The notes under the pieces were generated by a model, which did no database searches, was not told the origin of the DNA, and worked only from the letters and a program-made list of their open reading frames with translations. Shown piece after piece: positions 34,566 through 40,765 of a stretch of 64,000 nt of DNA (within the stretch, counting starts at the first letter, position 1; each line of letters starts with the position of its first letter). The DNA comes from Sarea resinae (Eukaryota), in the NCBI GenBank assembly GCA_026026165.1, contig JAPEUD010000007.1:372001-436000 (forward strand). The letters are read 5' to 3'. Both the position numbers and the translations under genes were made by a program.

Positions 34566-35989
34566 CTAATCATCAATGCTCCGCACGTTTGTGGACGTGA
34601 CACCAACATCTCCAGTCTTCTTTTCAAACTCTGTTTCAATGACGCCTGATTCTTCATCAAAGCTGGGATTGGTGCTGGATTCAGAGTTCATAGCCTTCGC
34701 CTTCAGAAAAGGCCAGTGGCCTCGTCTTTCCTTGTATCGCATTGCGAGGAAGCCAAGCATGATGACGACCCAGTAAAGGTTGTATCCGATGACTGTTCCA
34801 TAAGTCGCAGAGTTCTCCCAACCGAGAATAGCGTTGAAGATACCCCAGCCGCCGCCGCCATTGACCTCAGCATTACAGCACTGGGCTCAGATGTCAGCAC
34901 AAGACTAACAAAAAGGCTTACGCCAATACTAATTCGAAGCTTACATTGACATGCCAGACACTCTGACGGATATCATAGGAACCAGGGCCCGAACCAGTCT
35001 CGGAGGCATCCCCTCCAGTGAGACTACTCCACTGTGATTTCGTCAGCTTTTCGCTCTTCAATGCGTTATGGTATGCAAGCCAGGCCACATACCGCATGAT
35101 TCTCAAAGTACCAGATGGCCTTGGAGAAGAGACCAGCAGCAACCAGATATAAGAAGCATGTTGAAACGATCAAAAACACCTGGATTGGCGCGTGGTTACC
35201 ACCCCTAGCAAAAGATCAGCTTCATGAGGAGTGTAGAAGAGGCAAAATCACCCACTTATAGATCAAGAAGCCGATGGCGAAGCCAGCAAGCAGTCCACAG
35301 ACCACGGCAAGAGGGAAGGCCGTGGCGGGTAGACCAAGACTTACGCCTCCGATGAAGACGACTGCTTCAAGACCTTCTCGGAGGACCGTGATGAAAGGGA
35401 GAAGGAACATGGCATATTTCTCTGCCCAAAGCTTCAGCCGGGCGCCGATGCGGCCCTGAGTAAATTTGCTCTTCTCCTTGGCCTCAAGGGCTTTGGCCAG
35501 CTTGACTCGCCACTTGTCTTGGAGCTTTGATACCCGCAGGAGCGCGGCGCCCATCATAGAGATGACGAGGGAAGCAATGAGACCAAAGGAACCTTCCCAG
35601 ATGTCTTCCGTATTCGAGAAATGATCTTTCCCCAGCCCATAGAAGGCTCCGATCATCCCGGCACCGATACAGATACATATTACCAAGCCTAATGCGGTAC
35701 CAAACCAGACCTTGAGCCAAGTCTTAGCATCCTCGCTGTCACGAAAACGAAGCGTGGAAAGACAATCGCTTTTTCACGGAGAATGTTTACCTGTCTGACA
35801 AGTTTTCTATATACTATTGGATCCTTGTCAGGGCCCAAAGTCTGCTTGATAAATGCGAGAAGCACAGAGACAATGATGCTTGTTTCAAGCGTCTCACGGA
35901 AGCAGATGAAGAAGACTGTAAATGTGTTAGCTGGGGCTCGATCAACAATATCGTGGATCCTTACTCGGAACGGCAAAGACGGCCACCAT
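34566..35989 (-). CDS. FTR1: High-affinity iron permease
   Basis: Start MVAVFAVP at 35989; two REXXE motifs (RETLE, REGLE); [37 protein letters not shown]. Five GT-AG introns. Confidence 0.95.
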
Positions 35990-36111
35990 CTTTGCAACTT
36001 CACAACAGCGTGCTGCAAATGGATCGAAGGAATACAGAAAGATGAAGGACTATGAAACCTTGCAGGCAGATTATGAGTGTTGATCACCCCGACAAGGTCA
36101 GCACGAGTCTG

Positions 36112-37284
36112 ATCTGATAAATTGGGGGGAAAGAGGTGGAGGACATCGATCTGATAAAGTTCTACCGTCGCTACTGCGGAAAACCCATGGCTAAGCGAGC
36201 AGCACTCGCATAATCGGCCACTCACACCTTAGCGTTTGCCCTAGGGAAGTGCGACTTTGTGAATCCACCCCAAGAGGTGAAGGTGTCGGCCGGTCTCGGG
36301 GCCATTGGACATAGAGTCAGGCCATTCTAGGTTGGCCTTGTTACAACTGCGACGTAAATGCCGAGAGACGTGGCTAAAGAATGTCGGGGAAAGTGGGTCA
36401 CCACACACCCCAAGATAAAACTCAAAGTACATGGACCGTCAAAGTTTCCGGATCGCGTGGCTTGACGGAAACCCAAGTCTTGCCGAACCAGAAAGCTCAT
36501 CACGGCTCTTGCTGGGGCGTCATGGTCTCGTGCTGACTGGCAATTTTCTTGCTAACATATAGCAGTTCGATTAATCAAAATACGAGCACGGCAGTACTGC
36601 CGAAGTACGTAAATACGGGATTTGTTGGGTGTGAAGGGGTGAAGGTGGTGAGGGGCAGGGCGGGAGAATGCTTGATCTGATAAGCTAAAAACATTTAGAC
36701 TTTGGCTAATACGAGTCTAGCGTCCTTTGCGGGCACACACGCTACTGTCTCATTGGATACTCTGGAACAGAATTTTATCTGATCGGCCTTGAGATGATCT
36801 GACAAGCGGCGGCCTGCATTGCATTACTGTTGAAGTTGCACCGGTTCCTCCACGAGGCATTCGAGAAGGCTTGGTCTCTGATCGTCATTCTTGGCCTGCA
36901 ATTTCATGCGTTGACCCGCTTCCTCCCTGATATCTTTTTCCTACCTCTTTGCTTCCCTGGGATTCTGTGACACATCAATCGAAGCCAGCAGTGGGATTGG
37001 GGCTTGTGACACCACGTTGTCGAATCTGGCCGCCTTCCTTGCAGAGTATCCCGTTCTTGTGTTCGAATTGGTACTCCGCACGAAAGGCTTGTCAATTATC
37101 CAAGCCGAAAGTTCCTTTCCGCTACGGCTGCCATCCAAGTTCCCTTTTAGTTTAGGCGCCCAACGCGCCATTTCTTTCGCCAAGACTTTCACCCCCACAA
37201 TCAGATATCGTTACGCATTTCCAGGTTCCGGCATTTTGCCGCGCTGCAGACATCAGACAAGATCACAGACTGCCCTTATCAGAT
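36112..37284. promoter_or_regulatory. Cluster of ATCWGATAA extended GATA sites (SreA/SRE iron-repressor type) in the bidirectional FTR1-FET3 promoter
   Basis: ATCTGATAA at 36112, 36149 and 36675; reverse-strand copies TTATCTGAT at 36775 and TTATCAGAT at 37276; near-matches at about 36797, 37200 and 37251. Confidence 0.8.
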
Positions 37285-37421
37285 CATCATCTGTCTTCAA
37301 GAGTCACTGGTCAAACTCAGCGTCCGTTGATCAATAAGGACTCTCAATCATAGAGGCCTTTCACGAAAACCCTACTCGAAATATTTGAAGGGCAAGGCTC
37401 TCTTCTAACACTTCATACCCC

Positions 37422-39718
37422 ATGGCGCTCTCTCTTTCTTTCTTCCCCGTTATGGGGCTTCTGCTCCTGCCATTCGGGCTTATAGCAAATGCGAAAACGG
37501 TAACTTACGACTGGAATATCACCTGGGTTCTTGCGAATCCGGATGGGCTATTTGTTCGTCCGACGATTGGCATCAACAATCAGTGGCCCTGCCCTCGTCT
37601 CTCTGCAGATGTTGGAGATAGGGTCATTGTCAACCTTAATAATCAATTGGGAAATGAAAGCACCAGCTTGCATTTCCATGGCCTCTTTATGAATGGCACG
37701 AATGAGATGGACGGAGTGGTTGGTGTCACACAATGTGCTGTTCCTCCTGGATCTTCAATGACTTATAATTTTACGGTAAGCATTCCCTGATTTATAACGA
37801 GATTTCTTTCTCTAAGCCACTCGCTGCTGCAATAGATTGATCAACCCGGAACTTATTGGTACCATTCCCACGAGAGAGGTCAATATCCGGATGGTCTTCG
37901 AGGACCTCTCATCGTAAATGATCCTGATATACCCTTCAAGGATCAGTATGATGAAGAGCTAGTCCTTACGTTGTCAGAGTGGTACCACGATCAGATGCCC
38001 GGTCTGATGAAGACTTTCCTCAATGTGGCAAACCCAACAGGCGCTGAGCCAGTTCCGGATTCCGCTCTTTTCAATGACACACAGAACCTCCAAGTTGCCG
38101 TGCAACCTGGGAAGACCTATATGCTACGTATCGTCAGCATAGCTGCTTTTGCGTCGCAATATGTCTGGTTTGAGGGTCATACGATGAAGATCATCGAAGT
38201 AGATGGCATCTACACTGAGCCTACAGAAGCAGACATGATCTACTTGACGCCTGCGCAGCGCTACAGTGTTCTGATCACCACCAAAAACGATACGAGCACT
38301 AATTATGCTTTCGTTGGAAGCATGGATGAGGTATGATGACGTTTTACGTTCTGCTAGATGCACTCAGCTCACGACTTCTTAGGATCTATTCGATACAGTC
38401 CCCAAGACTCTCGACCCTAATGTTACCGGTTGGCTCGTTTATGATGATAAGGCAGAATTGCCTAAACCAGCCTTGCTAGAGGAGTTCAATCCTTTTGACG
38501 ATTTTACGCTTGTGCCTTACGACCATGAAGAATTATATGATCACGTTGACTACTCGTTTAACTTGGATGTAAAGATGGATAATCTAGGGGATGGTATCAA
38601 TTAGTGCGCGATCCATTCAACAACCCCAATGCACCTCGACGATGGCTAACAGACTTGCAGCGCATTTTTCAATGACGTTACTTATGTTAGTCCCAAGGTG
38701 CCTACTCTTTATACAGCGCTTTCGGCTGGTGACCTAGCCACCAATGCCGCTATCTACGGCCCCAATACCAACTCTTTCGTCCTCAAAAAGGGCGACGTCG
38801 TTGAGATCGTCCTGAATAACGACGACACGGGTAAACACCCGTTCCATCTCCACGGCCACACTTTCCAGGCCGTCTGGCGATCCGACGAAAACGCTGGTTT
38901 TTATAACGGTACCGGCGCGCTGTCTAAAGTACCCATGCGGAGAGATACCTTCATGGTCCGACCGCAGGGCAATATGGTTCTCCGTTTCGTCGCCGACAAT
39001 CCTGATAAGTCCCCCTTTTGCAACCATGCTCCCATACTCACCGCTGACTTTTCCCCTCACGCATCTGGTTTTTTCACTGTCACATCGAATGGCATGTCGA
39101 ATCGGGCCTCATTGCCACCATGATTGAAGCGCCCATTGAACTCCAGAAAACCATGAGCATTCCAGCGGACCACTTCCAAGTCTGCAAAGCTGCGGGTAAG
39201 CCAACTGAGGGTAATGCCGCAGCCAATACTCAAGATTTCTTGGACCTCACGGGCGTGCCCAAGAGCCCGAAACCTCTCCCAGCCGGGTAAGAAGCCAAAA
39301 GTCTATTCCTTGCGACTTAATGTTTCTCCTCAAGGCCATCACTGATCGTGCGCTTTACTTGATATAGATTCACGGCCAGAGGCATCGTGGCAATGGTGTT
39401 CAGTGCTATTAGTGGTATTCTCGGCATCACTGTCATTGCATGGTAAGTCTCTCCCCTCCTCTCCCCTCTCTGCCCTCTCTGCCCCACTCCCCTCAACCAA
39501 GTCCTCCCCATGAACATGCACTAAATCTATGCAACGCTTACAGGTACGGCATGGGCGAGCTCTCTGTCGAGGAACAAAAGAAAGTCATGGCCGAGACCGC
39601 AGCCGCAGCCGCCGCAGGTGGTAATAGCATTGACTTCGAAAACGAAACAGCGGCCAGCACCACAGCGACCGAGACTAGGGAAGAGCGACAGAGGCACGAG
39701 AGAGGGTCGGGGCAGTAG
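37422..39718 (+). CDS. FET3: Plasma-membrane multicopper ferroxidase
   Basis: Signal peptide; [17 protein letters not shown] and HCHIEWH copper motifs; GAEPVP and NLGDG ferroxidase acidic residues; C-terminal TM helix. Introns 37776-37835, 38331-38382, 38604-38660, 39005-39060 (AT-AC), 39287-39367 and 39443-39543. Confidence 0.95.
39005..39060 (+). other. Non-canonical AT-AC intron in FET3
   Basis: CCTG|ATAAGT...GCTGAC TTTTCCCCTCAC|GCATCTGG. Removal restores [14 protein letters not shown]; no usable AG acceptor lies in the interval. Confidence 0.85.
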
Positions 39719-40133: not shown

Positions 40134-40164
<31 letters not shown>

Positions 40165-40187
40165 ATTGATTGCTTGATTGATTGATT
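40134..40187. repeat. (GATT)n microsatellite
   Basis: Directly visible between FET3 and MIR1. Confidence 0.85.
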
Positions 40188-40765
40188 CATGGCAAATGCG
40201 ACTGACTGCCGTTTTATGTCTGGATAGTCGCCCCCCTTTCTTCAGTCTGGCCCTTACCTCTTTTCCTCTTTTTCTCTTTTTCTTTTACTGCGTACTCGAA
40301 TGCAAACCTCAGATGAAAAACTCAGATATAAATCAACCAGCCAGCAGAGAGACCACGACGAGAACGCGAGCAAAACATCTTAAGAAGAAAGGTCTAGGAT
40401 TATTTGTGAAGAGTACTTAGTAGTAGGTTGACGAGAGAAAATAGTACTACAAACTCCCTTCCACCTCTCTATCTCACCTCCCTTCCTCTCTGTTTACCGC
40501 AGCAGCCAGTTCCATCTATCCTTTGCCAAATCGCTGCTCCTGCGCTACAATTAAAGGAAAAGAAAAAGAGAAGACATTTCCATCCACTACTGCGCGTAAA
40601 TACAACGATTCTTCACCCCTCCTCCTCCTCGTCCCCATTGAATCGGCTCAGCTCGGCTCGTCTATCTTCGCGTTCGTTACCGATTCCCCCTCCCGACCCT
40701 GAGGGCTTCTCGCTTCCCGCTTCCAAGCACCCAACAACGTCCCGTCACACGCGCACTCTGCTCAT

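Follow-up and report, generated by a model that had tools for sequence, protein, structure and literature searches.

U2-dependent AT-AC (type II) introns combine AT and AC termini with an ordinary branch site and pyrimidine tract. The human SCN4A and SCN5A genes and the TAF2 genes of human and Drosophila carry such introns, conserved between orthologs, and the sections of Sheth et al. (2006, PMC1557818) that deal with the class count 15 of them in human, six in mouse and three in fly. These sections also mention an earlier hypothesis that U2-type AT-AC introns occur in the xylanase genes of filamentous fungi, and recount that, in both yeast and human, turning the first base from G to A is rescued, if less efficiently, when the last base goes from G to C. 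According to the portion of PMC5029451 that treats metazoan U2-type AT-AC introns, /ATAAGT is their very strong consensus. Fungal annotations contain AT-AC introns much more rarely than plant or animal ones in the part of Frey and Pucker (2020, PMC7072748) concerned with their frequency, and the relevant passages of Larue and Roy (2023, PMC10639083) describe Ascomycota and Basidiomycota as having no convincing minor introns and as having lost most or all of the minor small nuclear RNAs (snRNAs). Here we describe an intron with the hallmarks of the type II class in a FET3-type multicopper ferroxidase gene of Sarea resinae (Sareomycetes, Pezizomycotina). The gene lies in a 64,000-nucleotide stretch of contig JAPEUD010000007.1 (assembly GCA_026026165.1, positions 372,001 to 436,000 of the forward strand), hereafter the window, in whose coordinates all positions are given. 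Its fourth intron, at 39005-39060, is very probably a genuine spliceosomal U2-dependent AT-AC intron, and we infer that it is excised in Sarea. Like the vertebrate and fly examples it has AT and AC termini, an ordinary branch site, a pyrimidine tract and orthologs with the same termini; unlike the metazoan cases, it resides in a filamentous ascomycete, a group reported to lack the minor spliceosome.

The seven exons of the gene join into 1890 bases in one frame with a single terminal stop, encoding 629 amino acids (aa). Introns 1, 2, 3, 5 and 6 are all GT-AG, and intron 4 is the exception (Table 1). Between 39005 and 39075, the sole AG lies at 39008 and the sole nearby GT at 39009; therefore, no GT-AG or GC-AG pair restores the frame, and no AG acceptor precedes the His and Cys codons. 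The reading frame of exon 5 opens at 39063, with GC at 39061-39062 before it, and the AT-AC junction 39004/39061 is the only frame-restoring one, forming a Gly codon from G|GC. This junction is unable to slide, because a G at 39004 stands against a C at 39060 and an A at 39005 against a G at 39061. On the Cu-oxidase_2 profile, exon 4 reaches position 110 (Pro) and exon 5 resumes at 113 (Trp); Gly and Ile fill positions 111-112, so the junction fits without an insertion or deletion. The copper-ligand segment rebuilt in this way is uninterrupted in yeast Fet3p. The intron stands immediately 5' of the His-Cys-His copper-ligand codons, and its retention would end the protein 20 codons later, without the T1/T3 ligands and the membrane anchor. 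The first-pass annotation, made from the letters of the window, had proposed an AT-AC intron with U2-type rather than U12-type signals at this place, as the only repair of the broken frame among otherwise canonical introns, standing before the copper-binding motif and leading to a stop if retained. Our translation, profile alignment and motif survey bear out each of these statements.

A sequence error at either terminal base, at 39005 or 39060, was also considered. Of the sequencing runs searched, one DNA run (X1, probably the source run of the assembly) and no RNA run holds the region 38383-39718. The Logan contig of X1, built by an independent assembler from the same sequencing, shows 0 differences from the window over this region at a word depth of 367. 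The identity excludes an assembler slip, but it does not amount to independent reads; the stronger answer is the occurrence of the same termini in other genomes.

To obtain orthologous DNA, metagenome contigs were scanned with an alignment of the exon-4 region, and the 80 loci returned were scored at the site after the first base of the Gly codon following D-N-P (phase 1). An intron with AT-AC termini occupies the identical site in six loci (L001, L002, L003, L024, L025, L061), with AC-AC termini in two more (L013, L079). GT-AG introns are found there in 12 (L015, L018, L021, L035, L036, L038, L042, L049, L053, L057, L062, L065), and two (L019, L033) start with GT and are cut by the contig end. 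The remaining 58 have no intron at the site, a count that includes L037 and L074, whose contigs end a few bases past it, and five loci (L006, L008, L010, L045, L046) that carry introns a few codons from it. L015 and L061 were picked out by eye at first, and the pattern search later recovered both. Identical introns occur in L024 and L025 and again in L062 and L065, and those of L013 and L079 are near-identical. Apart from the window's own, there are six distinct A-type (AT-AC or AC-AC) introns, with lengths of 52, 52, 86, 67, 52 and 52 nucleotides and unrelated interiors. Hence, the termini are conserved while the intron interior drifts, and A-type termini in eight of 80 loci, all at the same codon position, are beyond chance. 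None of the 20 complete orthologous introns has mixed termini (A..G or G..C); as far as these loci tell, the first and last intron bases always change together at this site. In L001, the upstream introns could also be resolved, as three GT-AG introns at the window's positions followed by the AT-AC one; exon mapping of the other loci failed or was ambiguous, and the statement on other introns is limited to this locus.

The two AC-AC introns (approximately L013:1564-1615 and L079:1843-1894) read ACAAGT...AGCTAAC...CAC and are the counterpart, by a +2 T-to-C change, of GC-AG introns; no alternative GT-AG pair keeps the frame in either. A related multicopper oxidase group (L006, L008, L010) has no intron at the Gly codon. 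It has one inside the Trp codon instead and a second a few codons on, inside the Cys codon (the Cys being read by eye, from sequence that ends at the donor). Therefore, intron positions around the copper-ligand motif are not fixed.

All nine A-type introns seen as DNA, the window's included, have an A[T/C]AAGT donor, and AAGT at +3..+6 is thus present in 9/9 as against 2/14 of the GT-type donors at the same site. These donors agree with the metazoan U2-type AT-AC consensus as given in the above portion of PMC5029451, and the donor in Sarea, like those of the class, matches the U2 consensus except at +1. They also fit the idea, stated for GC-AG introns in the part of PMC1557818 on those introns, that a terminal mismatch is offset by the remainder of the splice site. 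A CT[AG]AC-type branch motif lies 10-23 nucleotides from the end of all nine (in L024 and L025 the script chose a nearer CCCTGAT, and AGCTAAC was found by eye about 12 nucleotides from the end); the same type of motif is also seen in the window's own GT-AG introns. In the window, the tail after the branch site (CGCTGAC) has a pyrimidine fraction of 0.92. The 3' ends are CAC in seven of the nine and TAC in two. Neither an ATATCC donor nor a TCCTT[AG]A[CT] branch motif occurs in any of them. From these signals, we propose that the major spliceosome would read AUAAGU as a 5' splice site mismatched at +1 only, recognize GCUGAC as the branch site and use the first downstream CAC as the 3' splice site. 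The intron-first A and intron-last C would replace the usual pair of Gs, whose interaction the second catalytic step requires, and excision would join G|GC into the Gly codon, restoring the copper-ligand segment. Unlike in the known type II cases, use of the major spliceosome is here read from the splice signals and from the literature on the minor one.

The taxonomic reach of the intron was followed further in translated form. Database proteins and open reading frames (ORFs) that enter the intron were used as a proxy for DNA: after DNP, an Asp corresponds to G|AT or G|AC (A-start) and a Gly followed by foreign sequence to G|GT (G-start), while an AC end shows, depending on the frame, as Arg (C|GN), Thr (AC|G) or His/Tyr (xAC). 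The first 120 relatives comprise 25 A-start cases (24 by script, P0007 by eye), ten G-start, 80 contiguous and five unclear. Fifteen of the 25 A-start models reach exon 5, all of them implying an AC end (13 flagged by the script; P0008 and P0025 by eye), and the other ten stop earlier. Seven of the ten G-start models do so too, all implying AG (as Gly, Arg from AG|G, or Lys/Gln from xAG), and three stop earlier. Thus, 22 of 22 informative read-through models in this set agree with matched termini. A second protein search yielded six A-start cases among 71 new proteins (P0145 was wrongly flagged as G-start there, being a contiguous protein with a residue other than Trp). Cluster representatives added 15 of 147, at 45-73% identity, of which 11 reach exon 5 and are, by our own reading, all AC-compatible. 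No G-start count is given for the cluster set, as the script's 22 include contiguous non-Trp proteins (such as P0252, P0257, P0258 and P0297). Overall, 46 of 338 related proteins are A-start. A Lys follows the Asp, corresponding to AAR at +3..+5, in 36 of these 46, and the Asp-Ile expected from ATATCC in none.

The A-start proteins with a named source come from Alectoria, Lasallia and Peltigera (Lecanoromycetes), Candelaria (Candelariomycetes), Cirrosporium (Xylobotryomycetes), Neodothiora (Dothideomycetes), Vezdaea and Thelocarpon (leotiomyceta incertae sedis), and further from Agyrium, Mycoblastus, Ptychographa, Pycnora, Hypocenomyce, Sarcosagium, Candelina and Trizodia. The G-start cases include Alternaria viburni and an ORF (P0067) nearly identical to a protein of Gyalolechia ehrenbergii (Teloschistales). 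By this comparison, the intron is likely old and its position common across Pezizomycotina, with AT-AC (or AC-AC), GT-AG or absence as its states. The intron had been called rare in the first-pass annotation. That holds for the class, which is rare genome-wide in the parts of PMC1557818 and PMC7072748 that give counts, but not for this site, where it is widespread in several Pezizomycotina classes. The FET3 intron is very probably a new member of the known U2-type AT-AC class, an uncommon intron with an ordinary mechanism, and differs from the known type II cases in that its site is common to five or more named classes or orders within Pezizomycotina, alternates with GT-AG more than once and has an AC-AC variant. 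Noteworthy are the deep conservation at one site, the clean covariation of the end bases with repeated switching and the AC-AC variant, and the systematic mis-annotation described below. A literature search on AT-AC introns combined with ferroxidase, Fet3, multicopper oxidase, laccase or lichen returned only incidental matches, the supplementary intron tables of PMC7072748 and PMC10639083 being outside its scope.

That gene predictors would mis-model this intron had been foreseen in the first pass, and the Sarea model and at least 45 further models or ORFs do read through it. The public Sarea model (P0001), named as a hypothetical protein of a metagenome-assembled genome of Sarea resinae and 100% identical to exon 4, has 415 aa rather than 629 and ends at the read-through stop. 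Models that likewise end in the intron are those of Mycoblastus (465 aa), Vezdaea (472 and 479 aa), Candelaria (485 aa), Cirrosporium (484 aa), Sarcosagium (470 aa), Lasallia (481 aa), Hypocenomyce (478 aa), Trizodia (476 aa) and Neodothiora (487 aa). The Alectoria model carries the intron as in-frame coding sequence. In those of Usnea florida (P0070) and Cornicularia normoerica (P0121), a false canonical intron has eight conserved residues, RFRADNPG, exchanged for intron-encoded ones (PNTTSSPR or the like), the Arg in the replacement betraying the C|GN junction. The model of Piccolia ochrophora (P0037) skips the whole copper-ligand segment. As a result of such models, FET3 in Sarea and many lichen fungi is represented by proteins with a lost or distorted T1/T3 copper site, which could be misread as a loss of high-affinity iron uptake.

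Two proteins bear on excision itself. P0006 is an ORF of 598 aa that runs on from its Met without a break and shares 94% identity with the Usnea florida model across 566 residues; it is 96% identical to the genomic ORF P0021 outside the insert, where it has one Gly against 22 residues (DKS...SPR). P0017 (601 aa, on a 2478-nucleotide contig) is 91% identical to the Alectoria fallacina protein P0012, whose insert faces a gap of 30 residues. Both resemble transcripts after exact removal of the AT-AC intron. Several points weigh against this account of the intron. P0006 and P0017 are of other species than P0021 and P0012, and could represent genes that lost the intron precisely; no spliced and unspliced pair from the same species was found among the relatives, those of the second protein search included. 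For the Sarea locus itself, the runs offer DNA, so that excision there is a deduction from the genomic sequence. Most of the taxonomic breadth comes from translated read-through signatures rather than DNA, in which an Asp is unable to separate an AT from an AC donor, and some annotated models may carry invented internal introns. Finally, the absence of the minor spliceosome is taken from literature on Ascomycota generally, and not from the Sarea genome; Rfam models at gathering threshold gave no match in the 64-kb window, a result that argues for neither side.

The repeated co-occurrence of A with C and of G with G makes the FET3 site a natural test of the catalytic rule for the terminal bases in a lineage reported to be without a minor spliceosome. 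Parker and Siliciano are said to have turned yeast and human introns, in 1993, into engineered A1/C-last double mutants; the paired end-base change is the same, and the FET3 site offers natural covariation instead. How often the change occurred was addressed with gene trees. A FastTree phylogeny of 152 rows (the window, the 80 loci, named proteins and the read-through proteins of the first 120 relatives, with the junction columns dropped) gathers most A-type rows, along with losses and a G-type group resembling Teloschistaceae, into a single group of 66 rows; L024/L025, Neodothiora, P0024 and P0068 fall outside it. An IQ-TREE "quick" search without bootstrap kept 64 of the 152 rows, some of them partial, with near-duplicates, short rows and most intron-less loci left out. 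On this tree, the A/G labels need four changes, at least two of them forced by well-supported branches, and the best tree with all 22 A rows and all ten G rows on opposite sides of a single branch loses 111.7 log-likelihood units (p-AU 6e-5). A single AT-AC/GT-AG switch is thereby rejected, and the gene tree thus calls for more than one paired double change. Which way the switches went is not readable from a gene tree that, for this purpose, has no root.

An account that goes further casts the FET3 intron as an ancient toggle, with AT-AC held across several Pezizomycotina classes and paired flips to and from GT-AG more than once; taken as a whole, this appears unlikely to us. Two further readings extend the idea. 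The intron may be a relic U12-type AT-AC intron that was taken over by the major spliceosome when Dikarya lost the minor one, or it may have been kept as a slow second catalytic step that tunes the amount of ferroxidase.

Under a refinement of the type II interpretation, splicing would be slow or conditional on account of the AT-AC termini, creating a rate-limiting or iron/copper-responsive gate on Fet3 production. A1/C-last introns splice "less efficiently" than G/G ones in the yeast and human tests recounted in the pertinent section of PMC1557818, the intron lies directly ahead of essential ligand codons where retention would lead to a premature stop, and the AT-AC state has persisted in many lineages. 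However, such persistence is equally explained by epistasis: either single reversion, to GT-AC or AT-AG, would create a mismatched pair that should splice badly, and long persistence of AT-AC is hence to be expected anyway. Moreover, the 12 GT-AG and 58 intron-less loci and the more than one switch of state do not require a conserved regulatory role, and the intron region has no stable structure able to sense anything (fold against shuffles, z +1.77). The rate-limiting or metal-responsive switch of the first-pass annotation accordingly finds no supporting result here and, given the GT-AG or intron-less orthologs, would not be a general role; we regard it as quite improbable. Removal by an RNA structure or another non-spliceosomal route was dropped on the same folding result, the region folding no better than shuffles.

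It is very improbable that the intron is simply kept, with the locus being a pseudogene or encoding a truncated 415-aa protein, or the two odd bases being sequence errors. The public model P0001 does end at the read-through stop, and the locus is represented by DNA reads. Against this stand the seven open exons with intact copper-ligand motifs and hydrophobic tail, the conservation of the exons 3' of the intron, the adjoining FTR1 partner gene and the identical termini in independent genomes, and sequence error is further opposed by the independently built contig at depth 367. Weaker still is the case for a U12-type intron removed by a minor spliceosome persisting in Sarea, for which one could cite AT-AC termini typical of one U12 subclass and a branch A 13 nucleotides from the 3' end, a short distance that is inside the range of U12-type introns. 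This is scarcely credible, as only the terminal dinucleotides are held in common with U12-type AT-AC introns, the donor being ATAAGT and not ATATCC, a TCCTTAAC-type branch being absent here and the motif missing from all nine A-type introns, the same-site GT-AG introns having equally short branch-to-3' distances (9-24 nucleotides), Asp-Ile read-through being absent from the 46 A-start proteins, and Ascomycota being reported, in the passages cited above (PMC10639083), to be without minor introns and snRNAs.

The assignment of the host gene is drawn from its domains, relatives and neighborhood. The exons match the Pfam families Cu-oxidase_3, Cu-oxidase and Cu-oxidase_2, corresponding to three cupredoxin domains, and the translations contain the copper-ligand His/Cys motifs, including HCHIEWH. 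The best solved relative is yeast Fet3p (PDB 1zpu; E 1.2e-57 and 2.2e-38), with the best laccases far behind (E 1e-27 and 1.7e-9). A hydrophobic stretch encoded by exon 6, read from the sequence and not by a transmembrane predictor, is the putative C-terminal membrane anchor. FTR1 is the usual partner of FET3 in the classic FET3-FTR1 gene pair, and an exon fragment of an FTR1 iron permease lies divergently upstream, the two genes having in common the upstream region of about 36229-37421. The Pfam domains, the best match to Fet3p and the FTR1 neighbor together identify the gene as a FET3-type ferroxidase beside its usual permease partner, with a predicted ferroxidase activity. It has in common with yeast Fet3p the three cupredoxin domains, the uninterrupted DNPG-[IV] copper-ligand segment, the FTR1 neighbor and a GAEP segment, which we take to hold the ferroxidase residue Glu185. 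With its six introns it is unlike yeast FET3, which to our knowledge has none in S. cerevisiae.

Table 1. Features of the FET3 locus, in window coordinates
Feature	Position	Strand	Remarks
FTR1 iron-permease exon fragment	35692-36228	-	Pfam FTR1, E 1.3e-6, above cut-off
FET3-type multicopper ferroxidase gene	37422-39718	+	in-frame model, Pfam, solved relatives
Exon 1	37422-37775	+	
Exon 2	37836-38330	+	
Exon 3	38383-38603	+	
Exon 4	38661-39004	+	ends GCC GAC AAT CCT G: Asp-Asn-Pro and base 1 of the Gly codon
Intron 4	39005-39060	+	56 nucleotides, phase 1, AT-AC termini
5' splice site ATAAGT	39005-39010	+	U2-type consensus GTAAGT except +1
Branch-site match GCTGAC	39043-39048	+	presumed branch A 39047, 13 nucleotides before the last intron base
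3' splice site CAC	39058-39060	+	first AC after the branch site
Exon 5	39061-39286	+	starts GC, completing the Gly codon; H-C-H codons 39075-39083
Stop codon on intron retention	39121-39123	+	read-through ends SLPP; end of public model P0001
Exon 6	39368-39442	+	
Exon 7	39544-39718	+	

Two repetitive tracts lie in and beside the 3' part of the gene. Pyrimidines are unusually frequent in intron 6 (39443-39543; 101 nucleotides, GT-AG), and CTCTCCCCTC-like units recur ahead of its branch region. About 420 nucleotides 3' of the FET3 stop codon, at 40134-40188, there is a (TTGA)n-like microsatellite with two TTGC variants.

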